Shown here: one piece after another, positions 10,617 to 31,418 of the stretch
Numbering within the stretch: the stretch's first letter is position 1
Layout: the number at the start of each line of letters is the position of its first letter
Source: a virus
Length of the DNA: 64,000 nucleotides
Strand: one strand, 5' to 3'
Virus record (IMG/VR): IMGVR_UViG_3300045988_025287
Location: 32,001-96,000 of that record
Made by a program: the position numbers and the translations under genes
The notes under the pieces: generated by a model
Databases searched by the model: none
Told to the model about the DNA's origin: nothing
Seen by the model: the letters and a program-made list of their open reading frames with translations, nothing else

Positions 10617-11176
10617 GATATACAGATTTATTCGCAAAGTAATTATTCTATGAAATGCAAATTATCCTCATATGTTGTGAAACATAGTTTAACCACGTTA
10701 AAGTATAATAATATAAGTTAGGTATGCCCTTATAAAGACTTAGGTAGCGCTAAGGACTATATTATTATACTTCTCTTCTTAATGCAACTACATCTCTCGT
10801 AAGCAATAACCGTGACAAGTCGGGGAGAGAACACATTTGAGTTTATGTGTCAAGAATGCAGAGTCAAGAATACTATATGAAACCTACTGGAGATAGGTAA
10901 TGCACAACCGTCAAGAGTGTAAGGAAGTATAGTATAATCCACGTGGTAGATGCAGTTGTAGGTTCCAACTGGTGCACATCTTTTAGAGACAGTAACCAAG
11001 CTCGAAGTAAGCAGAGCGAAGACAATTAGCTATACCTCGATAGGCTTAATGAGGTGCTTAACAGTCTGACACTAACTGAACAATAAGTGTCTGTTCATCC
11101 TCAAAGAGGAAAATGTTGAACTCTACAGACATGTAGACAGCTCCATTAACTCTAGCTGTAACAAAGAGTTATTAAT
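10617..11176 (+). ncRNA. ORF-free G+C-rich island D
   Basis: About 560 nt with no ORF in the track, visibly G+C-richer than coding DNA. Bracketed by the two homologous hairpins. Confidence 0.3.
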
Positions 11177-11270
11177 AGAGTAAGAGAATAGAAACGTGTA
11201 TATCTACGTAGTTCATAGCATAGCTTATAGTCGTATAACACAACATCGATTATATTAATGCGCTTACTCT
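11177..11270 (+). repeat. Conserved hairpin element, copy 2 (AGAGTAAG-AGAATAG..TAATGCG-CTTACTCT)
   Basis: 8-bp stem 11177-11184/11263-11270, followed by ATTATTTTTATT (terminator-like). Stem differs from copy 1 at two base pairs, both compensated. Confidence 0.7.
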
Positions 11271-11309
11271 ATTATTTTTATTGCATTAACTAACAAATAA
11301 ATCAATTAT

Positions 11310-11540
11310 ATGGAAACAAAAGTAATATTAGCTACATTTTACGTAATATTAGGCATATATAGTATGATAGTTTATTTAAGATACGGCTATAAAAAATATG
11401 AGGTGCTAACAGTAGCAGACATATTAGTATCTCTATTGATTATAGTTGGATGGCCGCTTCCATTACTAATGTTATTAGTCCATCATTTTCTACTTTTTAT
11501 ATGTAAACTTGAGGAAATTGTAATACTAAGAAAGAAATAA
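11310..11540 (+). CDS. Small membrane protein
   Basis: Intact ORF, two hydrophobic segments. Confidence 0.7.
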   Translation: METKVILATFYVILGIYSMIVYLRYGYKKYEVLTVADILVSLLIIVGWPLPLLMLLVHHFLLFICKLEEIVILRKK

Positions 11541-11560
11541 TTAATAAATAATATCAAATT

Positions 11561-11989
11561 ATGAAGAAAATAACTTGTATTCAGAATTATGTAATAGATA
11601 AGCTTATTGAAGACAAGAAATTGTCTACAAATAGTCTATTAGATGCAGTTTCTAAAGTATGTTCAAAGGAACAGTTTGATAATATACTGTCTATTCTTAT
11701 AGAAACACCTATTCCTTGTACAAATATGCCTGAATTAGAAAGCAAAACAAACTTAGTAAGAATGAGTATGTTTATATCTGAAGAAGCTGGCAATGAAACT
11801 AAATTGAGGATAATAAAAATACTAATGAACCAATTTGGTCTTGGTCTTAAACAAACTAAAGAATATGTAAATAGTTGTATAGGAAAATATAATATATTAC
11901 CTAAAGCTGTTATGCAAGCAGAAATAGATGAAGTTACAGAAAAATTAGAACCTTACAATGTAATTGTATCTACAGCAGGGTTTTATTAA
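11561..11989 (+). CDS. Protein with ribosomal L7/L12 C-terminal-domain-like region
   Basis: KLRIIKILMNQFGLGLKQTKEYVNS...AEIDEVTEKLEPYNVIV parallels E. coli L7/L12 [25 protein letters not shown]...AEALKKALEEAGAEVEV (recalled, not aligned by software). Confidence 0.55.
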   Translation: MKKITCIQNYVIDKLIEDKKLSTNSLLDAVSKVCSKEQFDNILSILIETPIPCTNMPELESKTNLVRMSMFISEEAGNETKLRIIKILMNQFGLGLKQTKEYVNSCIGKYNILPKAVMQAEIDEVTEKLEPYNVIVSTAGFY

Positions 11990-12493
11990 TAAGTTAATGC
12001 AGTAAATATTACTGCATCTTTAAGGTGAGAATCCTTAACAATCCTGTGGGGCTTATATCTCGTGTTTATAGTAGTGGTGTCACGAGTATTAGTGCAGACG
12101 TTAAAATCAGGAACAACTATATTAGACGGCAATATTACCTTCTTCCAGTCGCAAATGTCATATAGTTTAATATAGCCAAGTTCGTTCGTCCTTAGATTTA
12201 TGGTATTAGCCATTTGTTTATTTAATCATCGTTTCATTCTTAATTGTACAGATTGATTAATTAAGCATAACAGTAAGCGTACTGTTGTCAGTATATTTAT
12301 ATGTGAATATAGATATACTGATTGCACTCATTAAGGTAGCCTTCATGTGGCGAGTGTGTTAAGTAATAGGTCTAAAGAATCTTCCAGTTTGTACCTATGA
12401 AAACTAATACCTTTAACCGCCAGCTCACGCGGTATATAAGACAGGATTGCCGGACCCGCAGGTGTAACGAGATAAATACCTGCATTTTTTATT
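11990..12493 (+). ncRNA. ORF-free G+C-rich island E
   Basis: Starts with an 8-bp hairpin ATGCAGTA/TACTGCAT. Contains GTGCAGACGTTAAAATCA (12092-12109), shared with island F. Ends in the terminator at 12458-12493. The only ORF (minus strand, 11986..12213) is doubtful. Confidence 0.35.
12458..12493 (+). terminator. Rho-independent terminator
   Basis: Stem GCAGGT/ACCTGC (12458-12463/12478-12483), 14-nt loop, then ATTTTTTATT. Confidence 0.65.
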
Positions 12494-12531
12494 AACCTTA
12501 ATAATTATCAAGTTGTAAACTTTAATTTAAT

Positions 12532-12614
12532 GCCCAGATGGCGAAATAGGTAGACGCTAAGGTCTTAAACACCTTTGACCATTGGTCGTGCGGGTTCGAC
12601 TCCCGCTCTGGGTA
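12532..12614 (+). tRNA. tRNA-Leu (anticodon UAA), class II
   Basis: Cloverleaf by hand. Acceptor GCCCAGA/TCTGGGT, anticodon stem AAGGT/ACCTT with loop CTTAAAC, variable arm GACC-ATT-GGTC, T arm GCGGG-TTCGACT-CCCGC. Confidence 0.9.
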
Positions 12615-12643
12615 CAATTAGTAATTAACATTAAAATCTATTT

Positions 12644-12949
12644 ATGATAAAAGTAATTAAATATTATGAACTAAATCGAATTAGTAGAATATTAGTAATA
12701 GCAATAATAACATATATTGTTGGTATTCTAATTAAAAGAGAATACGAAGAGTCCAAAACTGTATATAATTTTGTAGATTTACAAATGAAGTACAAGAATT
12801 ATATATTAGTCAATAAAGAGAGAAGTATTACTAATGATGAAGAATATAAGTTCACATTACGTAATCCTATTACAAACCAAAATAGTACTGTATATGTAAA
12901 GTACTATCTATATCATCACGTATATTTTGTTGGAGATACTATAAAGTAA
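12644..12949 (+). CDS. Hypothetical protein with N-terminal TM segment
   Basis: Intact ORF. Confidence 0.7.
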   Translation: MIKVIKYYELNRISRILVIAIITYIVGILIKREYEESKTVYNFVDLQMKYKNYILVNKERSITNDEEYKFTLRNPITNQNSTVYVKYYLYHHVYFVGDTIK

Positions 12950-12968
12950 CATTTTAATCAATAAAAGT

Positions 12969-13337
12969 ATGAAAAGAGAAGAAATTAAATCTTACAAAGA
13001 CGCTTGTAGAGTAATAGGTAGAAAACCTAGAACTTATAAAGATAAGCATTTGAATCTGTATGAACAGCTTAGTGCAATTATAGCTGCTCTGAATTTCATT
13101 AGTAATGATAATAAACCTTGGACACCTAAGTTCGATTATTATTACATCTATTCTTGGTTATACAGAAAAGATGGATATAATAAATCTGCGGGTTTGTTCT
13201 ATTTGGCTTCTTACGCTGGGTTGGGCGCTTCCGGTGCTCTTGTCGGGACTTCTCTGAAAATAAAAGAGAGAGAAGATGGAAATTACATAATAGAAAACTT
13301 TAAAGAACTACTCCAAGATTGGTTTTGGGGAGATTAA
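12969..13337 (+). CDS. Hypothetical protein (122 aa)
   Basis: Intact ORF. Confidence 0.7.
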   Translation: MKREEIKSYKDACRVIGRKPRTYKDKHLNLYEQLSAIIAALNFISNDNKPWTPKFDYYYIYSWLYRKDGYNKSAGLFYLASYAGLGASGALVGTSLKIKEREDGNYIIENFKELLQDWFWGD

Positions 13338-13362
13338 TTACTAATTTTAAAACATTATCAAA

Positions 13363-13821
13363 ATGGAAAATGAAATGATGGCGAGACCCGAACCGCCAAG
13401 AAGAACTGTTTGGGTAATAGTAGCAATCATTGCCTTAATAGGCATGTTTGGAGCAATGATTTACGCAGAGCGTGAAAACATTGCCAATTTCTTAAATGGT
13501 GTGAACCAAGAAGAAATACAAGAAGATCCTCAAGTTATCATTGAGGAACCTGTAACAACAATACAGGATATTCTCGACATGAGAGAGCAAATGAGAGAAG
13601 ATAGAAGAGTTGATAGTGTATTTTTAGCTATGCCAAAGGTAGTATTAATTGATATTTTGATGCAGCATGGTACGTCATTGTCTATAAAAGACATAATTTA
13701 CATATATGAATCAAACACATCAACGTACAACACAGTATTATCTGGGGCAAGAGCTCAAAAATATCTTGATGACTCTATACAAACTCATGTTATATCAACT
13801 GTTGTAAACGACTCTATTTAA
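13363..13821 (+). CDS. Hypothetical protein with one TM segment
   Basis: Intact ORF. Confidence 0.7.
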   Translation: MENEMMARPEPPRRTVWVIVAIIALIGMFGAMIYAERENIANFLNGVNQEEIQEDPQVIIEEPVTTIQDILDMREQMREDRRVDSVFLAMPKVVLIDILMQHGTSLSIKDIIYIYESNTSTYNTVLSGARAQKYLDDSIQTHVISTVVNDSI

Positions 13822-14211
13822 GACTAGACCTTCTTTTTAGTTAATATTAGAGTCTAGTATACTCAGTCTGTGAAGATAGAGTATACGTCCTCAGAAAATG
13901 ACAAACATGTGGGGCGGGAGTAAATAAGTAAAACTAAGCAGTAGTATTATATATCAGTAAGGATACTACGCCGAATCTGATTGTTTTGTTTATTTATAGT
14001 CGTGCGGACGTTAAAATCATGTACTCCAATAAGATTTAGTTTGACAGCTATTTCTGCTTACGAGTTAAAACTATAGTGAGAGTCATAGTAAGTAACGATT
14101 GTAGTCGTTTATCTTTGTCTTATAACAAATGCTATAAACTAAGTTGGCACTAACTTAATTAAATCCTGAGTGCCCAGGCGTCATTATTAACAATTTAAAT
14201 TTTTTAGAAAC
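13822..14211. ncRNA. ORF-free G+C-rich island F
   Basis: Starts with a 7-bp helix ACTAGAC/GTCTAGT. Contains GTGCGGACGTTAAAATCA (14002-14019), 17/18 identical to island E. Confidence 0.35.
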
Positions 14212-14442
14212 ATGAAAAAGATTGGAGATTTTTTATTTGTAGAGCAATGCTTTACAGATACTGAAGAAACAAAAACTGCGGTAGTCAATATTAATTATAT
14301 TGACAGCATAACTCAGAGCTGCAATGACAAACTTGGAGACATTGTAGTCATAGAGACAGATAATACAAGAATTATCTGTAAAGATCCAGAGAATTTCTTT
14401 ACTGAGTTTGAGAATCTAATTTCAGATGAAGAAGAATGGTAG
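14212..14442 (+). CDS. Hypothetical acidic protein (76 aa)
   Basis: Intact ORF. Ends in TAG (14440) with an in-frame TAA three codons later (14452). Confidence 0.6.
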   Translation: MKKIGDFLFVEQCFTDTEETKTAVVNINYIDSITQSCNDKLGDIVVIETDNTRIICKDPENFFTEFENLISDEEEW

Positions 14443-14699
14443 TCAATAAAGTAAAAGAGGGCCGTAAATTAACTGAAATAAAGTTCAGTAACGACCACTA
14501 TCTCGCAAATCTATTAGCTACTACTAAAGTACTTGGCATATCGTTAGAACGAGCTAAAAAGCTATGTAGAACAGTACCAGGTAAGAGAGTAGAAGTTAAT
14601 CCACCTATTGAAATTATCAGTAAGTTAAATACTGATAAATTATTTGAAGAATTAGAGGAGTATGAAATAGAAGTATCTATTAGTATTCCCAGTAAATAA
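14436..14699 (+). CDS. Hypothetical protein, second L7/L12-CTD-like candidate
   Basis: KVLGISLERAKKLCRTVPGK...DKLFEELEEYEIEVSI follows the same pattern as the L7/L12 C-terminal domain. Weaker than 11561..11989. Confidence 0.5.
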   Translation: MVVNKVKEGRKLTEIKFSNDHYLANLLATTKVLGISLERAKKLCRTVPGKRVEVNPPIEIISKLNTDKLFEELEEYEIEVSISIPSK

Positions 14700-14716
14700 C
14701 TTATCAAAAGTAAAAC

Positions 14717-15184
14717 ATGAAAGCAATTGTTATTTCATTTGAAGGAGCTATAAAAGACGATAATATCTTTGCATCATTATTAGCTTCTTTTGTAGAGAAA
14801 CATGTAAACACTGAATCTGTAAATATCCATATTTTATCAGATATAGATGTAACAAATGCGCTAATAGCTAAGTGCTTAATTCCATCTGCTATAACAGTAG
14901 ACAGACCATCTAATCCGCAAATACCAGTAGTAGAAGATTTCTGTAAGAAGATTGTTTCATCTATTGGTTCACCCGCACTTAAAACACGAGAATTGTTAAA
15001 CTCAGAACTATGCAAGTTCTTAGTACAACAAAATCGTGAAGTTATTAGTGTTCCAGTAAGTATTATTGCTAAAGTAAATACTACTTCTGCGTATTACGAA
15101 CATCGCAAGGTACTAAAGGAATACGGTTTATCTGCATTACCTGAGTTATTACGCGATATTAACCCTCTATTTAAATTTTACTAG
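14717..15184 (+). CDS. Hypothetical protein (155 aa)
   Basis: Intact ORF in the co-directional block. Ends in TAG (15182) with a backup TAA at 15200. The antisense ORF 14704..15015 was rejected. Confidence 0.65.
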   Translation: MKAIVISFEGAIKDDNIFASLLASFVEKHVNTESVNIHILSDIDVTNALIAKCLIPSAITVDRPSNPQIPVVEDFCKKIVSSIGSPALKTRELLNSELCKFLVQQNREVISVPVSIIAKVNTTSAYYEHRKVLKEYGLSALPELLRDINPLFKFY

Positions 15185-15185
15185 T

Positions 15186-15284
15186 ATGGCAAAGAAGAAT
15201 AATGAAGAGCCTCCAAAGGAATTTAAAAAGAAGCCAAAACATAAAAAGATGGAGCCCTATAATCGTAAGAAAGCATGGAAATAG
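15186..15284 (+). CDS. Small Lys-rich peptide (32 aa)
   Basis: Hand translated: MAKKNNEEPPKEFKKKPKHKKMEPYNRKKAWK. Ends in TAG. Confidence 0.35.
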   Translation: MAKKNNEEPPKEFKKKPKHKKMEPYNRKKAWK

Positions 15285-15421
15285 ATAATAATTGTCCTAC
15301 ACTTGATAATCATATCAACTGTAGTGAATGTACTCATGAGTGTAAACTCAGAATGCAACCAAAGAATAGTAAAGAAGTAGAGGTTCCGCCAGAGCCTCTA
15401 CTTAATACTATATATTACTAA
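15275..15421 (+). CDS. Small Cys-containing protein (48 aa)
   Basis: Hand translated. CPTLDNHINCSECTHEC cluster. TAA at 15419-15421. Confidence 0.4.
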   Translation: MEIDNNCPTLDNHINCSECTHECKLRMQPKNSKEVEVPPEPLLNTIYY

Positions 15422-15460
15422 TTTAAATTGTTAGTAAAATGGTGGATTCAGTCAACCCAA

Positions 15461-15610
15461 AGAACTGTTTAAGACTAGAACCCTAATGGAAATTGTCAAT
15501 CAAGAGTACAATGGACTATACAACGGTCAACCACATTATATGTAGGTCAGGAGAAGGCAGGGAGTCTCCTGTTGAATAAGAAGTACAAATAGACAGGAAC
15601 AGTTCTTTTT
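15461..15610 (+). ncRNA. Structured element G, closed by a 9-bp long-range helix plus U-run
   Basis: AGAACTGTT (15461-15469) pairs with AACAGTTCT (15598-15606), followed by TTTTT. Internal 7-bp hairpin CAGGAGA/TCTCCTG (15548-15554/15565-15571). Confidence 0.4.
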
Positions 15611-15663
15611 AATTATTACTTAAATTTACTAAAAGATATGAGTAAAACAAAAAACAAATTAAA

Positions 15664-15891
15664 ATGTCATATTATATGACCAATATAATTATTACTCCTA
15701 CTTTATATGAGGAGAAAAGATTAGAAGCTATATCATACTTTAGCAGATGTAGTAGAGAAGCAGCACTAAGAATCCACAAAAAGAACAAATATAAAGATAT
15801 TAAATTGAAGCTAAACACTATAGCAGTAGCTATAATCGAGGCTAAAAAGAGATATTTTGATGATTGTTCTTTTATTAAGATTATATTATAG
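15664..15891 (+). CDS. Hypothetical protein (75 aa)
   Basis: Intact ORF. TAG stop with a TAA one codon later. Confidence 0.55.
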   Translation: MSYYMTNIIITPTLYEEKRLEAISYFSRCSREAALRIHKKNKYKDIKLKLNTIAVAIIEAKKRYFDDCSFIKIIL

Positions 15892-15935
15892 TGTTAAATA
15901 AATTTTATTGTTAAATCAATTAAACTGTATTCAAA

Positions 15936-16403
15936 ATGGCAGAAGTAAAGAAAATGAACATCCTTATAGAGGATGTAAATGGAGAAAACATCCAGGATGT
16001 AATCGCTAATTCAAGTAAGGTAACTGAAGAAATTGCAGAAGAAGCAGCAAAGAAAATTGCTGAACGACGCAAAGAAAAGTTAACGAAAGATTTAGTAGCT
16101 GTTGTTCAGAAGAGCGAATATACGGTATCCTCAGCGGTACTACAAGTTCGTCGTTCTAACAGAACAAACCAACGTATTAAACAGTACCTAAAAGATCTTG
16201 CTACACTGAAAGAAGAGATTGTAAGTGGAAAGAAACCTGTATCTGCATGGAAAGAGGAAGCTTATAATCTAAAGAAACAGTACGACAAGGATCTTATTGA
16301 GATTGGAAAGGATATCGACAAGTCCTTAAATGAACTTAACGAACTCTTTCCAGACTCTTGGCAGTGGAGATACGATGATTTAGTTCCTAATACTAATAGA
16401 TAA
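15936..16403 (+). CDS. Hypothetical coiled-coil-like protein (155 aa)
   Basis: Intact ORF, charged heptad-like composition. Confidence 0.75.
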   Translation: MAEVKKMNILIEDVNGENIQDVIANSSKVTEEIAEEAAKKIAERRKEKLTKDLVAVVQKSEYTVSSAVLQVRRSNRTNQRIKQYLKDLATLKEEIVSGKKPVSAWKEEAYNLKKQYDKDLIEIGKDIDKSLNELNELFPDSWQWRYDDLVPNTNR

Positions 16404-17048
16404 CTAAATCAAAACAAATAAAAGAGGTTCCAAGCTTAGAATCTTTGAATCAATAGCTTAGTATGTGAGTCGGAAATAGTTCTTTTGAACTCTAGGGCCT
16501 GAGGCATACAAGGACCTGAATTAACAGGTCTCATACAGAATTTTAAATCAGTTATGGGGAACTACCGTGAACTACTGATCATAAGTCTGAGATCGCGACA
16601 ATAAGATTGTCCTCTAGAAATAGAGAAACGCTCTAGTCGTGACATCAAGTTTAGACTGAATAATATGAATCTTTGAATCGTTTAAAGTATCTATACTTTA
16701 ACTATTATTCGTGTATTATCAAGATCAGTATAAGAGAACTAACCATTCTCAAGACCATAGGGTATATGACTTTGGTCGGTCATATACCCACAATAGAGTA
16801 GGTATAATACCGAACTGTAAAAAGAATTGACTGTTAGGTCTATTTATGCCTTCAGGTGACCGCGGGGCAGTACCGCGCACATCCACTAAAAAAATATAAT
16901 AAGGGTGTGAAATAGTATTGAACCGTTGAAACAGAATAGAATAGGTCAATAAGCAGATAACTGGCAATACAAGTTATGTAACGGACTATACTGGTATCGC
17001 AGCGTGATAACAGAGTCCAACGGCTAAGCTAATGTCGTAGAAAGCTGG
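16404..17048 (+). ncRNA. ORF-free G+C-rich island H
   Basis: About 645 nt. 13-nt exact direct repeat GAATCTTTGAATC at 16439-16451 and 16667-16679. GC hairpin CGCGG-GGCAGTA-CCGCG near 16862-16880. Ends at a tRNA-like module. Confidence 0.35.
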
Positions 17049-26880: not shown

Positions 26881-26951
26881 TCTCATGTAGCTCAGTGGTA
26901 GAGCCGCTACTATGTAGTGTGAACGCGTTGGTTCGAGTCCAACCATGAGAT
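26881..26951 (+). ncRNA. tRNA-like element with aberrant anticodon arm (loop contains CUA)
   Basis: Good acceptor TCTCATG/CATGAGA, D arm GCTC-AGTGGTA-GAGC and T arm GTTGG-TTCGAGT-CCAAC. The anticodon region CGCTA-CTATG-TAGTG gives a 5-nt loop, or a 7-nt loop ACUAUGU with C at position 33. Confidence 0.5.
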
Positions 26952-26973
26952 CTAACTTTTAAATACTTATAAT

Positions 26974-28953
26974 ATGATTATACGAGGAAAGATAGTCTAC
27001 GTATATGATATTGAGGTATTTCAAAATATCTTTCATTGTTCGGTAAAAAATACAGAAACAAACGACATCTATAAGTTTGAGATATCAGAGAGGAAAAATC
27101 AACTAAGAGAATTAGTTAAATTCTTTAAACAGGTAGATAAATATATTACTTGGGGAGATTATTATACTACAAATATTAATATTCCAGCAAATATTATATT
27201 CTGTGGTTATAATAACTTGCATTATGATAATCCTATAATCAATTATATAATTGAATATGAAGATAAATTAATGCAATATAATATACCTACTATATGTAGT
27301 TCTATATTTAACCTAAGTAAAACTATAACTACTTCGAGTGAAGATAATATAGATGCATGGAAGCATTGGAAGTATCAGATATGGTTTGATACTTTTGATA
27401 TTCTTACTATGTTATATTCTAATAAACTTAGAGTAGGTTTAAAGGAAATTCAAGTAACAATGCAATATCCTAATGTACAGGAATTTGTATGTGATTGGAC
27501 TAAACCTCTTCCTTTAGAAGATTTTGACTCTATGATAGATTATAATATTAATGATATTGAATCTACTTCAGAATTATTAAATAGATGTAAGAAAGACATT
27601 GATTTACGAATCGCTATTGAAGATGAGTATGGAGTAAGAGTACTTAGTAAAGATGGCGTAAATATTGGAATAAAGATTTTAACTCAGAAATATCTAGAAA
27701 AGACAGGTTTAACTTGGCAGGATATTAAAGATTTAAGATCTCCAATGAGTGTAATACCATTGAAAGATGTAATATTACCATTTATTAAATATGATAGCCC
27801 TATTCTGCAAAGAGTATTAGATGATATGAAAAATCAGATAGTATCTCCAGGTAGAAAAGGATATGAGAATAAGTTTGTATTTAATAATTTACGCTATTCT
27901 GTAGGAGTAGGAGGTATTCATTCTGTGAATAGTCCTGAAATCATTATTCCTAGAGATGATGAAATGCTTATAGATATAGATGTAGCTTCTCTATACCCAA
28001 GTATGCTTATAGAATATGAATTCTATCCTAAACATTTAGGTAAAGAATTCCTAGAAGTATATAAGCAAATTAAAGATGAGCGAATTGAAGCTAAACACAA
28101 CGGCGATAAAGTAAAAAATGAAACTTTAAAGTTAGCTTTAAATGGTTTATCAGGTAACTTACAGAATGAACATAATTTCTGTTATGCCCCCGAAGCTGCT
28201 ATGAAAATTAGAATCAACGGACAGTTACTATTACTTATGTTAGCTGAAAAATTAACTCAAATTGGATGCCGAATCGTCCAAGCAAATACTGATGGTTTAT
28301 TCGTCTTACTAAAGAAAGATATATATTCTAAAGTAAACAGTATTTGTAGAGAATGGGAACAGCTTACTAAACTTACTTTAGAAGAAGATCGTTTTAAAGC
28401 AATGTATCAATATGCTATTAATGATTATTTTGCTATTACTGAAGATAACAAAGTAAAAGAGAAAGGAATGTTTATTACTACTGTAAAATTAGGTAAAGGA
28501 TTAACTCCAAAGATTATACCTAAAGCAGTAATAAGTTTCTTTAAAGATGGAATATCAGTTGAAGATACAATTAAGAATTGTACAGATATAAGAGATTTTC
28601 TAATGTCTGAGAAAACTGGTAAACAATGGCATGTTGAATATATGAACGAGGAGCAACAAAGAACTAATCGTTTCTACGCATCTACTAATGGTGGATACTT
28701 GTGGAAATGGAAAGATACTGGTCATAAAGAAGGTGAAATTATAACATATACTGAGCCATACGTAGGAGAACGTAAATATAAGGCTTCTGCAAGACAGTAT
28801 CAGAATATGCTTACTGCATCTGGTGTTACTCTTCTAAATAAATTTGATAATAAACCAATTGAAGAAAGAAAGATTAATTATAGGTATTATATTATGGAAG
28901 CCTATAAGATAATCAGAGATTTAAAACCGTTACAATTGAGCCTATGGGATTAA
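26974..28953 (+). CDS. Family B DNA polymerase
   Basis: Exo I DIEVF, Exo II NNLHYDNPII, Exo III YNINDIES. Pol motif A DVASLYPS, motif B KLALNGLSGN, motif C QANTDGLFV. Confidence 0.9.
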   Translation: MIIRGKIVYVYDIEVFQNIFHCSVKNTETNDIYKFEISERKNQLRELVKFFKQVDKYITWGDYYTTNINIPANIIFCGYNNLHYDNPIINYIIEYEDKLMQYNIPTICSSIFNLSKTITTSSEDNIDAWKHWKYQIWFDTFDILTMLYSNKLRVGLKEIQVTMQYPNVQEFVCDWTKPLPLEDFDSMIDYNINDIESTSELLNRCKKDIDLRIAIEDEYGVRVLSKDGVNIGIKILTQKYLEKTGLTWQDIKDLRSPMSVIPLKDVILPFIKYDSPILQRVLDDMKNQIVSPGRKGYENKFVFNNLRYSVGVGGIHSVNSPEIIIPRDDEMLIDIDVASLYPSMLIEYEFYPKHLGKEFLEVYKQIKDERIEAKHNGDKVKNETLKLALNGLSGNLQNEHNFCYAPEAAMKIRINGQLLLLMLAEKLTQIGCRIVQANTDGLFVLLKKDIYSKVNSICREWEQLTKLTLEEDRFKAMYQYAINDYFAITEDNKVKEKGMFITTVKLGKGLTPKIIPKAVISFFKDGISVEDTIKNCTDIRDFLMSEKTGKQWHVEYMNEEQQRTNRFYASTNGGYLWKWKDTGHKEGEIITYTEPYVGERKYKASARQYQNMLTASGVTLLNKFDNKPIEERKINYRYYIMEAYKIIRDLKPLQLSLWD

Positions 28954-29010: not shown

Positions 29011-29580
29011 ATGATTTTAGAAATAGACACTTCTATCTTAGATAGAATACCAAAACTATCTATTAATCAATTAGTATTCCTAACACTTGTATTGAATGAT
29101 ATCAAAACAATCAATCAAGACATTCAGAGACTTCTCAGCCTAGTTAATGAAGAAGAAATACAAGAGTTAGAGACTCAAGGTTTAATCTCTATCCAGTATG
29201 ATAGAGATACTCAAGTCATAAGTAAAACAGAGAAACTAGAAGAACTTCTTAAAGAAGATAAAGCTATGTTTGATATGTTCTATGACCAATTTCCAGTTTA
29301 TGTTATGAGACCTGATGGAACTAAAGGATTTCTCAGAGCTAATGTAAACAAATGTAGGAAAGAATATAACCACATTGTAGGCAAATCTAAAGCAATGCAT
29401 GAACATATCATGAATTGTTTAAAATACGAAATAGATGAGCGTATGCGTACAGGTAAAATAGGTTATATGAAAACTATGTGGAAATGGCTCACTCAACGTG
29501 AGTGGGAAACTATTGAGGAACAAATGAAAGTAGAAACTCCTAACCAAAATTACTATAATTATGGAGAATATATCTACTAA
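29011..29580 (+). CDS. Hypothetical protein, possible replication initiation/organizer protein
   Basis: Intact ORF directly upstream of, and overlapping, the helicase gene. The function is positional inference only. Confidence 0.6.
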   Translation: MILEIDTSILDRIPKLSINQLVFLTLVLNDIKTINQDIQRLLSLVNEEEIQELETQGLISIQYDRDTQVISKTEKLEELLKEDKAMFDMFYDQFPVYVMRPDGTKGFLRANVNKCRKEYNHIVGKSKAMHEHIMNCLKYEIDERMRTGKIGYMKTMWKWLTQREWETIEEQMKVETPNQNYYNYGEYIY

Positions 29581-30347
29581 AACACTAACATTTAGACATA
29601 TATCCTCTGCTACTAACGAAGCAGTAGAATATATTCGTAAGAGAAAGAATCATGAGATTGTTTCTTTACGTACTAGATGGAGTAAGTTTAATAAATCCTG
29701 TATGGGAGGCATTGAACCTAATACTATATATACTATTGTAGGTATATCTGGTAGCGGTAAGAGTTCATTTGTAAATACGCTTGAAAGTGATTTAATAGAC
29801 TTAAATTCTAATCAGGATGTAGTAGTACTTAATTTTTCATTTGAAATGTTAAGTTCTAGACAAGTAGGTAGAAAATTGAGCAGTAAGTTAAGGCAAACTA
29901 CTGCTCAGCTATATAGTTCTAGTAGTGATTTAGACAATACACTATTAGAAGAAGTAGAACAAACCTCTCAACAGATAAAATCATATCCGATATATTATGT
30001 AGATACACCGGGTACTGTTGCAGATATAGCATCTACCATTGATTACTTTTATGAGAATAAAGCTAAAGGCAAGAAATTTGTGATTATACTTGATCATACT
30101 TTACTTGTTGAAGGGCAAAATCGTGAAAGTGCACTACAAGTGATTTCCGATTTACAGAAACTGTTTATTAGAGTAAAGAAGTTTCCTGATACTACAATAA
30201 TACAGTTATCACAGATGAATCGTAATATCGAAAATCCTGAAAGAATTAATAATCCATCTATGCATTATCCAATGCGTAGCGATATATCTTCTGCTGATAC
30301 TATCTTTCATGCATCAGATTACGTTATATGTATTCATAGGCCAGAAT
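29561..30347 (+). CDS. DnaB-like replicative helicase, exon 1
   Basis: Walker A GISGSGKSS, Walker B VIILDH, SQMNR. The ORF stops at IHRPE-TAA, exactly where a group I P1 helix places a U-G splice site (U at 30347). Confidence 0.8.
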
Positions 30348-31188
30348 AAATAAAGCTGTTCTGGATAAATCCCGTTAAACGGTGAAAACCCGATGGGGCA
30401 ACGCCGTACCAAGTTTATATAGAAATATATAAATAGTGTCTAACGACTAGTAGTGAAACTACCGCTATTAAAGCTATGTTAATAATTCTACCACGAAAGC
30501 GGGAAATATAAACTTATATATTTATTATACGTTCCATATATAGTAATAATTAAATATTCTTATATGGAACTATTAATAGACGGAAAGAAAATAAATATTA
30601 GAGATAAAAATAGAATAAAAGAAGAAAATAATACTATTCTATTCAGATGTACTATATGTGGTAAATATCTACCTATTAGTGAGTTTGAACTTCGATGGAA
30701 TAATAGTAAAACTGAAAAAAATAATGTAAGATCACAATGTAAACATTGTCGTACAGAGGAAAGTAGGCTATACCACTATTATAGAAGAAGGAAATATACT
30801 GAACAAGTAGTAAAAGAAAAAATGTTACATTATGATAAACTAAAACATGATTTAGAATATCATAATAAAATAGTATTATATAGATATGCTAAGAACCATT
30901 CAAAACGATGTAATATTGAATTTAATATTACTCCTAATGATATAATAATTCCTAAAGAATGTCCAATTCTTAAGCATGAGTTTATTTTAAATGATAAACA
31001 ATATACTTATTCTATTGATCGAATTGACAATAGTAAAGGATATATACCTGGAAATATTGCTGTTATTTCAAGATTAGCAAATATAATGAAAAATTGTGCT
31101 AACTTTGAACAATTAATATTATTTTCTGAAAATATAAAAGATTATATTAAGAAATAGTCTAAACTACACGTATAAGATGAAGGTGTAG
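30348..31188 (+). mobile_element. Group I intron (IA-like) carrying an HNH homing endonuclease ORF in P8
   Basis: Hand model. P1 30341-30347/30358-30364. P3 30371-30375/30499-30503. J3/4 UAA. P4 30379-30384/30402-30407, with A-rich J4/5 and J5/4. P5 CCC-GAUG-GGG. P6 8 bp with a GAAA loop (30414-30433). P7 GACUA 30445-30449 / UAGUC 31155-31159. P9 31164-31169/31183-31188. The 3' end is uncertain (31188 or 31202). Confidence 0.65.
30564..31157 (+). CDS. HNH homing endonuclease (intron-encoded)
   Basis: Intact 197-aa ORF. Cys clusters CTICGK...CKHC. IDRIDNSKGYIPGNIAVISRLAN is HNH-like. Its TAG stop coincides with the P7 3' strand. Confidence 0.85.
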   Translation: MELLIDGKKINIRDKNRIKEENNTILFRCTICGKYLPISEFELRWNNSKTEKNNVRSQCKHCRTEESRLYHYYRRRKYTEQVVKEKMLHYDKLKHDLEYHNKIVLYRYAKNHSKRCNIEFNITPNDIIIPKECPILKHEFILNDKQYTYSIDRIDNSKGYIPGNIAVISRLANIMKNCANFEQLILFSENIKDYIKK

Positions 31189-31418
31189 AGTGCAAGATAA
31201 AGAGCTTGCAGAGAATACAAATTGTGCTCAATATACAGAGTTATGGACCAAATCGTCTACCAGTAAGAGATAAAGTTTATTTGCATATTCTAAAGAATAG
31301 AGATGCAGGTGAATGTTCTATACTTGAGTTTGATAATGACCTTAAATACAATAACTTAATTGAGACTATACGAGAAGATGAACCAGTAAGGAAGATTTCG
31401 TTTAGTAATAACAATTAA
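31189..31418 (+). CDS. DnaB-like replicative helicase, exon 2 (start approximate)
   Basis: Carries VYLHILKNRDAGE, matching the DnaB C-terminal KNRxG motif. Frame is open from 31176. Joining U30347 to A31189 keeps the frame but creates a UAG codon at the junction. Confidence 0.55.

Follow-up and report, generated by a model that had tools for sequence, protein, structure and literature searches.

How does a gut crAss-like phage make its DnaB-like helicase when the gene is broken by an apparent stop codon? In the window analysed here, a stretch of 64,000 nucleotides of viral DNA, the DnaB_C helicase ORF (29561-30349) ends at TAA 30347-30349, directly after ...VICIHRPE. An earlier note on this DNA attributed the break to a group I intron within 30341-31208 and proposed that the in-frame splice creates a UAG at the junction, coupling the helicase to UAG decoding. 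Our comparison retains the intron and moves its 3' end. In this phage (Suoliviridae), the helicase gene is very probably interrupted at 30348-31224 by a mobile, phage IA-type group I intron, which extends beyond the reported end. Its predicted end lies 36 bases downstream of the in-frame site chosen in the earlier note, so the junction would be an ordinary UUG leucine codon rather than a UAG stop. We infer splicing and the exact junction from comparison with related genes. The gene is divided as follows.

29561..30347, plus strand: helicase exon 1 (DnaB_C; Pfam PF03796, E=4.8e-20), with 97.6% nucleotide identity to the helicase of crAss-like phage cr53_1
30348..31224, plus strand: predicted group I intron of 877 nt, subgroup-IA-like, without P2; its removal restores a 981-nt gene colinear with that of cr53_1
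31225..31418, plus strand: predicted helicase exon 2, UG-CUC-AAU..., encoding (L)LNIQSYGPNRLPVRDKVYLHILKNRDAGE...; colinear with cr53_1 nt 788-981, with a sole difference at nt 789

The U of the apparent TAA, U30347, is the last base of exon 1, as the earlier note held, and it also opens the junction codon. When 30347 is joined to 31225, the sequence reads GAA-UUG-CUC, in which UUG takes its first U from exon 1 and encodes Leu. The predicted ligated RNA reads ...CCAGAAU followed directly by UGCUCAAU..., or, as DNA, ...CATAGGCCAGAAT followed by TGCTCAATATACAG... The spliced gene is 981 nt long, the same as the uninterrupted helicase of cr53_1, and the two are identical at 955 of 981 nucleotides (97%) and 323 of 326 amino acids. 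The junction peptide HRPELLNIQSYG is the same in both, with HRPE-L-LNIQSYG running across the junction. The DNA of cr52_1, an intron-less relative, reads CCAGAATTGCTCAAT, identical to the ligated junction; the corresponding intron-less site in cr53_1 reads CCAGAGCTACTCAAT. Over the final 350 nt, the differences from cr53_1 are only three synonymous bases, at junction positions -2, -1, and +2, and these bases create the U-G wobble at the 5' splice site and one P10 pair.

Six uninterrupted homologous helicases align without gaps across the junction and set the start of exon 2 at 31225. Therefore, the terminal G of the intron is most likely G31224. The earlier note had suggested aligning uninterrupted homologs to see which residue spans the junction; on this comparative evidence the residue is Leu, an ordinary sense codon at a different site. 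The helicase C-terminus (KNRDAGE) does continue downstream in the frame that the earlier note named, and the full-length helicase does need splicing.

The region around the 3' end contains the following elements.

31164..31188, plus strand: P9 hairpin, CUACAC / GUGUAG; G31188 closes the stem but does not end the intron
31191..31210, plus strand: P9.1 hairpin, UGCAAG / CUUGCA, with G31202 in the loop
31224, plus strand: predicted terminal G (omega-G), with the 3' splice site between 31224 and 31225; the sole G that restores a homolog-colinear ORF

The hairpin ending at G31188 is present as described in the earlier note, and it has three compensatory pairs in the diverged carrier L015 (CUAUCU/AGAUAG) and one in a second, L039. 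P9.1 also shows compensatory changes, with GUAUAAG/CUUAUAC in L015 and CGUAAG/CUUACG in L039. Positions 31189-31224 thus consist of covarying P9.1 plus a short tail, and are kept in ORF-less and diverged introns. A G also terminates the introns of L017, L015, and L039. Two other in-frame candidates inside the P9 stem, G31185 (UUA-Leu) and G31182 (UGU-Cys), were rejected for their place within that stem and because each would add residues absent from every homolog.

On the 5' side, P1 and the core helices are assigned as follows.

30341..30364, plus strand: P1, exon CCAGAAU 30341-30347 with internal guide GUUCUGG 30358-30364; 7/7 paired, with the U30347-G30358 wobble at the 5' splice site
30354..30356, plus strand: guide-side strand of P10, AGC, which may pair weakly (3 bp) with GCU 31226-31228 of exon 2
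30370..30374, plus strand: P3 5' strand UCCCG, pairing with CGGGA 30500-30504 in a partial Rfam alignment
30379..30407, plus strand: P4, ACGGUG 30379-84 / CGCCGU 30402-07, enclosing P5, CCC 30389-91 / GGG 30396-98, from the Rfam alignment
30414..30433, plus strand: P6a hairpin UUUAUAUA-GAAA-UAUAUAAA, 8/8 paired throughout the five lineages and showing compensatory changes
30445..30449, plus strand: P7 5' strand GACUA, a long-range partner of UAGUC 31155-31159, closing the catalytic core; fits the Rfam consensus GACUA...AUAGUC
30450..30497, plus strand: predicted extra helices between P7 and P3', namely P7.1 GUAG-UGAAA-CUAC 30450-62 and P7.2 GCU/AGC, the exact pairing being ambiguous
30500..30511, plus strand: P3 3' strand CGGGA 30500-04, then P8 5' strand AAUAUAA 30505-11, which pairs with UUAUAUU 31142-48
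31142..31159, plus strand: P8 3' strand UUAUAUU 31142-48 and P7 3' strand UAGUC 31155-59

The 5' splice site after U30347, with its 7-bp pairing and terminal wobble, was correctly placed in the earlier note. In the diverged carriers P1 is fully re-targeted yet remains 7/7 paired (ACUCAAU/GUUGAGU in L015; AUUAGGU/GCCUAAU in L039). For P10, L015 has UGUA/UACA in the same register, and L039 has just 2 bp. MAFFT alignments were wrong at P1 in L015 and L039 and at the 3' strand of P9 in L015; the helices were therefore checked strand by strand by script across the lineages. In this check every helix, including the core (P3-P8, with long-range P3 and P7), is fully paired in five lineages. Compensatory changes occur in 14 of the 68 predicted pairs. 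Among the diverged homologous introns they fall in P1, P3, P5, P6a, P8, P9, and P9.1. In particular, a U-A pair of P3 becomes C-G in L015, L039, and L035; a C-G pair of P5 becomes U-A in L015 and L039; and an A-U pair of P8 becomes G-C in L021 and L017 and a different pair in L039. P4 and P7 are invariant and so show no covariation; what backs them is the match to the Rfam consensus. A candidate P2 hairpin, CCGUUAAACGG, was rejected in favor of P3 (UCCCG/CGGGA), which covaries, and P4, which the Rfam alignment places.

The 48-nt segment between P7 and P3' registers in the Rfam alignment as 46 inserted nt, and RNAalifold predicts its hairpins. P7.1 admits two alternative GUAG-CUAC pairings, both compatible with the relatives. 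Additional P7.1/P7.2 helices between P7 and P3' are a criterion of subgroup IA (IA2) (PMC3428280).

Rfam finds no group I match on the whole window at the gathering threshold, nor on 30200-31400 at E<=10, and the absence of a match for this copy is accounted for by the ORF of 594 nt that the P8 loop contains. The 5' half of the intron alone gives a partial RF00028 match (16.1 bits). An ORF-less allele (L021) is matched over its full length at 37.5 bits (E=2.8e-8), below the threshold of 50, and the homologous intron L035 scores 55.4 bits, above that 50-bit gathering threshold. With RF00028 (Intron_gpI) the helicase intron shares the P3-P8 core and the J6/7-P7 consensus, which align, whereas the model misaligns P1/P2 and P9. 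The Rfam group I model thus misses phage introns with large ORFs, and the helicase intron is detectable only via natural ORF-less alleles. The fold of the ORF-less allele has an energy of -67 kcal/mol (z=-4.8), and none of 200 shuffles folds as well. The intron fold is more than chance. In accordance with the earlier note, the fold, the covariation, the homologs, and the RF00028 match of L035 identify the insert in the DnaB-like helicase as a group I intron.

ORF-less alleles with the same boundaries are 257 nt (L021) and 270 nt (L027) long, and the L017 allele keeps the boundaries with a 280-nt deletion in the endonuclease gene. Among nearly identical gut phage genomes, this one intron is seen at every stage of homing: the site unoccupied, the endonuclease gene complete, that gene in decay, and the intron without an ORF. 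In the orthologous helicase of the two diverged phages (L015 and L039), the same intron-endonuclease unit lies 8 nt further downstream, with the guide fully re-targeted, which implies that a group I intron moved ectopically from one site to another in the same gene. The close relative cr53_1 is without the helicase intron; its DNA polymerase gene harbors a different insertion, which also bears an endonuclease. A helicase insertion in cr118_1 gave no match in an Rfam search.

The arithmetic of the earlier note is sound: a cut after G31188 stays in frame and gives GAA-UAG-UGC (GAAT followed by AGTGCAAG), and a cut after G31202 is out of frame. If the intron ended at G31188, the helicase would need both splicing and UAG decoding, which would couple replication to the recoding switch. 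TAG is recoded in the late genes of this phage, where it is read as sense; the minus-strand giant late ORFs contain 36, 60, 12, 4, and 16 in-frame TAGs. The site also keeps the frame, and the hairpin that it ends is real and covaries. We nevertheless regard this ending as extremely improbable. It would add 12 residues (UAG-CKIKSLQRIQIV, i.e. X-CKIKSLQRIQIV after HRPE) that are absent from all seven compared helicases, and it would assign the conserved, covarying P9.1 and its tail to the exon. L015 and L039 regain the frame only with the distal G. ORFs with in-frame TAG occur solely in the late block on the minus strand at 37.8-63.7 kb, the plus-strand replication-block genes have essentially zero in-frame TAG, and no tRNA with a CUA anticodon was found within the window. 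Ligation of 30347 to 31225, on the other hand, reproduces the length and the junction peptide of the intron-less gene. On translation, the spliced helicase has no in-frame TAG and no internal stop; nothing therefore suggests that UAG decoding is required to express it. Nor does G31202 fit as the main 3' site, as it lies in the P9.1 loop and the homologs put exon 2 at 31225. Some group I introns do have cryptic 3' sites, and the guide region pairs over 5 bp with AGCUU after G31202, versus 3 bp with the exon 2 that follows G31224. Minor or cryptic use of G31188 or G31202 beside a main site at G31224, yielding a few aberrant UAG-containing mRNAs, is still very unlikely, given that the one is held in the P9 stem and the other in the P9.1 loop, that neither is exposed as a free G at a 3' end, that the G31202 product is out of frame, and that comparative support is lacking. 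We give as little weight to regulated use of G31188 (in frame) and G31202 (better P10) as alternative 3' sites, through which a minor helicase isoform with a 12-residue insertion might be made late, when UAG is decoded.

A gene that is never spliced would be a disrupted pseudogene, or would yield two polypeptides of 262 aa and about 64-70 aa. Splicing is deduced here by comparison, and a TTG-started 70-aa ORF is present at 31206-31418. Several observations make this highly doubtful. At least 16 IMG/VR phage contigs carry the intron with intact exons in both frames, and in L015 and L039 both exons are coding and stay colinear after in-silico splicing. The compensatory changes maintain the helices, implying selection on the fold, and the ORF-less versions keep the ribozyme core. 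In addition, Yutin et al. 2021 (PMC7886860) count the helicase as a conserved core replication gene of crAss-like phages.

With the intron ending at G31224, splicing would follow the pathway established for group I introns: an external guanosine would attack after U30347, and exon 1, once released, would attack after G31224. The exons would be ligated to ...CCA GAA UUG CUC AAU... (P-E-L-L-N), giving a 326-aa helicase with Leu at the junction, and UAG decoding would play no part in helicase expression. Unspliced RNA would instead give a 262-aa truncated protein ending at UAA. The gene model changes in the same way: annotation pipelines would give a truncated 262-aa helicase and orphan ORFs, and the true product is predicted to be a 326-aa DnaB-like helicase after removal of 30348-31224.

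The P8 loop holds two further features.

30564..31157, plus strand: intron ORF of 197 aa, an HNH/EndoVII-like putative homing endonuclease, wholly in the P8 loop; its stop TAG 31155-57 lies in P7'
30531..30570, plus strand: local hairpin GUUCCAUAUA / UAUAUGGAAC in the P8 loop; its 3' strand holds the endonuclease start AUG 30564-66, and it is conserved in L015 and L039

The ORF matches the profiles of PHROG 3322 (endonuclease, 6.7e-26), 1035 (endonuclease VII, 2.9e-20), and 3118 (HNH, 3.1e-10), and shares a motif with the annotated 'HNH endonuclease' of cr53_1 (E=8e-9). It has no match to Pfam HNH or any other Pfam family, to NCBIfam, or to PDB in sequence and profile searches. The invariant motif is S-[IL]-D-R-I-D-N-x-K-G-Y-x-x-G-N-...-S-R-L-A-N-x-M-K-N, and the cr53_1 relative has IDRVD...CCKMCNIMKN. 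By eye, Arg (DRID) stands where canonical HNH enzymes have His, and Ser/Ala stand in place of the Cys pair of the cr53_1 relative. Owing to these substitutions, the activity of the intron endonuclease is uncertain. In co-infection the enzyme presumably would cut or nick intron-less alleles, such as those of cr52_1 and cr53_1, whereupon the intron would be copied in. The hairpin over the start codon may have a role in limiting endonuclease translation.

Nothing in the present understanding of group I introns and TAG recoding is altered by the helicase intron. Yutin et al. (PMC7886860) report group I self-splicing introns with homing endonucleases in conserved genes of crAss-like phages, the same phage order, and recoding of TAG (to Gln) in the same genomes, mostly in late genes. 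That paper stresses the intron-rich Zeta group, and its available sections contain no mention of the helicase intron described here, which sits in a Suoliviridae genome close to cr53_1.

Like the helicase intron, those of T4 td, nrdB, and nrdD (sunY) are phage IA-type introns in genes of nucleotide or DNA metabolism, and their endonuclease ORFs are optional and loop out from the core. Translation of the ORFs of the T4 introns is restrained by RNA structure. The T4 introns differ in their endonuclease families (GIY-YIG for I-TevI, I-TevII) and ORF locations, and a sequence relation to the helicase intron is undetectable.

The closest known system is the phage DNA polymerase intron, found at exactly the same position in SPO1 and Bastille (PMC3428280). 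The helicase intron differs from it in its host gene, the DnaB-like helicase of a crAss-like phage, in an ORF that lies wholly in the P8 loop, and in an endonuclease without a Pfam HNH match or the usual Cys pair; its self-splicing and endonuclease activity are predicted from sequence. In each case the host gene is an essential replication gene, interrupted within a conserved motif, and both introns have P1-P10 without P2 as well as intron-plus and intron-minus alleles in closely related phages. The helicase intron probably also shares the extra helices between P7 and P3' and an ORF for an HNH-type endonuclease.

The closest genome is that of the crAss-like phage cr53_1 (NC_055889.1; Crassvirales, Suoliviridae, Blohavirus); 74% of an 18-kb query aligns with it at 95% identity. 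Its helicase gene is uninterrupted, 981 nt long, and 97.6% identical to the window exons, whereas the helicase ORF in the window ends in ...VICIHRPE-TAA, with the stop at 30347-49. Global alignment with the cr53_1 helicase breaks at window positions 30345-47 and 31225-27. When 30347 is joined to 31225, the product is exactly 981 nt, identical to cr53_1 at 955/981 nt and 323/326 aa; the junction codon is U|UG (Leu), and the peptide across it is the same in cr53_1 (HRPE-L-LNIQSYGPNRLP). The earlier note had proposed a UAG codon at the junction. This is contradicted by the uninterrupted helicases of cr4_1, cr56_1, cr52_1, Dulem virus 42, and cr131_1, which align gap-free across 30347|31225. In addition, the intron-less cr52_1 DNA equals the ligated window junction base for base (CCAGAATTGCTCAATATACAG). 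Over the final 350 nt of the gene, the window and cr53_1 differ at just three bases, all synonymous, at junction positions -2, -1, and +2 (GAA-UUG in the window, GAG-CUA in cr53_1); the window-specific bases provide the U needed in the U-G wobble and a G for P10. Because the 31225 junction matches the uninterrupted homologs, and a junction at G31188 would add 12 residues (X-CKIKSLQRIQIV) absent from every homolog, sequence comparison places the intron at 30348-31224 (877 nt), ending in the terminal G31224.

The fold is testable because relatives are available in IMG/VR. The intron is 98.5-99.6% identical in 12 IMG/VR contigs. One allele (L017:1330-1920, 591 nt) has lost part of the endonuclease gene (about 280 nt gone), and two (L021:966-1222, 257 nt; L027:867-1136, 270 nt) are naturally ORF-less, with boundaries as in the window intron. 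The helicase genes of these three are otherwise 97-100% identical. A complete homing cycle is visible among near-identical genomes; this is mildly interesting, as are the intron differences from cr53_1 and the shifted insertion point in two diverged homologs, both described below.

The RF00028 model of Rfam (threshold 50 bits) gives 55.4 bits (E=1.9e-12) for a related intron, L035, and 37.5 bits (E=2.8e-8) for the full-length L021 allele. For the window copy, the 5' half alone gives a partial match of 16 bits, and the search with the ORF included gave no match. Folding of the ORF-less allele gives -67 kcal/mol (z=-4.8). The consensus fold predicted by RNAalifold from five sequences contains P1, P3, P4, P5, P6a, P7.1, P7.2, P8, P9, and P9.1, with compensatory changes in 14 of the 68 pairs. 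In L021 and L017, P8 has a compensatory A-U to G-C change. A strand-by-strand check finds all helices fully paired in five lineages. The P1 pairing of CCAGAAU with GUUCUGG, with a U-G wobble at U30347, is present as the earlier note described.

Helices of the window intron (5' strand, 3' strand)
P1: 30341-47, 30358-64
P3: 30370-74, 30500-04
P4: 30379-84, 30402-07
P5: 30389-91, 30396-98
P6a: 30414-21, 30426-33
P7: 30445-49, 31155-59
Extra helices: 30450-97
P8: 30505-11, 31142-48
P9: 31164-69, 31183-88
P9.1: 31191-96, 31205-10
P10: 30354-56, 31226-28 (3 bp, weak)

P2 is absent, and P9.1 is followed by the tail GAGAAUACAAAUUG, whose last base is G31224.

The 3' ends first proposed were G31188 and G31202. 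The frame arithmetic behind them is correct (G31188 is in frame and yields GAA-UAG-UGC; G31202 is out of frame), and the KNRDAGE motif does lie downstream in the frame claimed. The CUACAC/GUGUAG hairpin ending at G31188 is a real P9, yet the intron runs on past it, and use of this junction, with its extra residues, is extremely unlikely. G31202 sits in the P9.1 loop and is rejected as the 3' end; that upstream Gs act as minor cryptic 3' sites is highly improbable. RNA left unspliced would stop at UAA and give a 262-aa fragment. A helicase without splicing, as a split gene or pseudogene, is very unlikely, since the exons are conserved and colinear in at least 16 genomes and the RNA fold is under selection.

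In the preferred reading, splicing to 31225, the established group I pathway would begin with guanosine attack after U30347, and exon 1 would then attack after G31224 to give ...CCA GAA UUG CUC AAU.... Helicase expression is coupled to splicing, as with any intron of an essential gene. The coupling to UAG decoding that had also been suggested does not hold, because the mature ORF is without TAG.

The premise of a TAG-recoded phage holds: the giant minus-strand ORFs need TAG as sense, in line with Yutin et al. 2021 (PMC7886860).

Gene features of the window (32% GC, AT-rich)
About 9.4-37.7 kb, + strand: replication genes, with an AAA_24 ATPase
26974-28953, + strand: DNA-polymerase-like ORF of the replication block, uninterrupted
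29561-30349, + strand: DnaB_C helicase (Pfam E=4.8e-20)
37796-63686 (37.8-63.7 kb), - strand: giant-ORF block, open solely with TAG as sense

The giant ORFs of 1564, 4175, 662, 615, 1413, and 247 codons contain 36, 60, 12, 4, 16, and 4 in-frame TAGs, respectively, and in-frame TAG is nearly absent from the plus-strand replication block. TAG recoding is restricted to late genes, a pattern already known from crAss-like phages. The ARAGORN search of the window gave no tRNA with a CUA anticodon.

The P8 loop contains a 197-aa ORF (30564-31157) with PHROG matches to endonuclease (6.7e-26), endonuclease VII (2.9e-20), and HNH endonuclease (3.1e-10). The motif IDR[IV]D..KGY...N......N[IT]MKN is common to it and to the protein annotated as 'HNH endonuclease' within the DNA polymerase gene of cr53_1 (E=8e-9); it has ISRLA at the position of CCKMC in that relative. 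The product appears to be an HNH-like homing endonuclease, with activity uncertain because Pfam, NCBIfam, and PDB gave zero matches. A conserved local hairpin (30531-40/30561-70) contains its AUG in the 3' strand, and its stop TAG (31155-57) falls in the invariant P7' strand (AUAGUC); the KK-TAG end recurs in two diverged homologs, L015 and L039. If this TAG were decoded late in infection, translation would continue to TAA 31173-75, lengthening the endonuclease by six residues (the decoded TAG plus SKLHV), and would carry ribosomes into P7'/P9.

L015 (74.5% identical) and L039 (66.7% identical across gene and intron together) carry the homologous intron and endonuclease in orthologous helicases (L015:1287-2160; L039 1956-2830, reverse strand; 69% and 56% aa identity). 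Their insertion point is 8 nt downstream of the window site, after ...PE-x-L-N/G in phase 0, and the guide is wholly re-targeted (ACUCAAU/GUUGAGU; AUUAGGU/GCCUAAU). This implies that the intron unit moved within the gene and was not simply inherited by vertical descent. L035:864-1122 (IMGVR_UViG_3300028591_000168) is a homologous ORF-less intron in another gene, 79% identical over the P3-P7 core, with a P1 of only 4 bp. Its exon encodes ...RGQRADWIFLDE, and the intron directly follows the Walker-B-like ...DWIFLDE; from motif alone, the host gene is probably that of the terminase large subunit. For its junction, our best guess is GAAU|UG, a hexamer also present at the window junction.

At L040:1407-2179 (NC_055889.1 80006-80778), the cr53_1 DNA polymerase is divided into two CDSs by an insertion that holds the annotated HNH endonuclease and scores weakly as group I (29.3 bits, E=2.2e-5). 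The window polymerase is intact; therefore, each of these 95%-identical genomes has an intron that the other lacks. At L003:1102-1466 (MT774379.1), the cr118_1 helicase is annotated as two CDSs, with a gap of about 355 nt within Walker A (GISGSG|KSSFVNTLE). The gap is without a long ORF, ends in ...GAUAACAAAAUUG, resembling the tail of the window intron family, and gave no match in an Rfam search; it probably represents one more ORF-less intron, inserted at a third position of the helicase gene.

Elsewhere on the + strand, 10625-17007 holds a structured-RNA cluster with members over the Rfam threshold.

Structured RNAs and tRNAs, + strand
10625-10775: RAGATH-6
10870-11092: RAGATH-7
12016-12112 and 13887-14022: two Hatchet ribozymes
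12532-12615: tRNA-Leu(UAA), interspersed in the cluster
15448-15608: RAGATH-9
16826-17007: permuted tmRNA
26881-26952: tRNA-like gene (Rfam tRNA, 46 bits)

ARAGORN reports the tRNA-like gene as 'His, anticodon atg at position 32', and the cr53_1 annotation has tRNA-His. Its anticodon arm has a 6-bp stem and a 3-nt loop (GCUAC-UAU-GUAGU), compared with the normal 7-nt loop.

The window intron is a group I intron, probably of the phage IA type, that interrupts a replication gene and encodes a putative HNH-like homing endonuclease. This kind is already known, and the surprising element of the earlier note fails the check. The lack of P2 and the extra helices between P7 and P3' resemble Pf-WMP3-type IA2 phage introns, which are without P2 and have helices between P7 and P3' (PMC3428280). 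According to Yutin et al. 2021 (PMC7886860), crAss-like phages decode TAG as Gln, mostly in late genes, and contain group I introns; the window phage agrees in its late-gene recoding, and introns such as this one have already been reported in that order.
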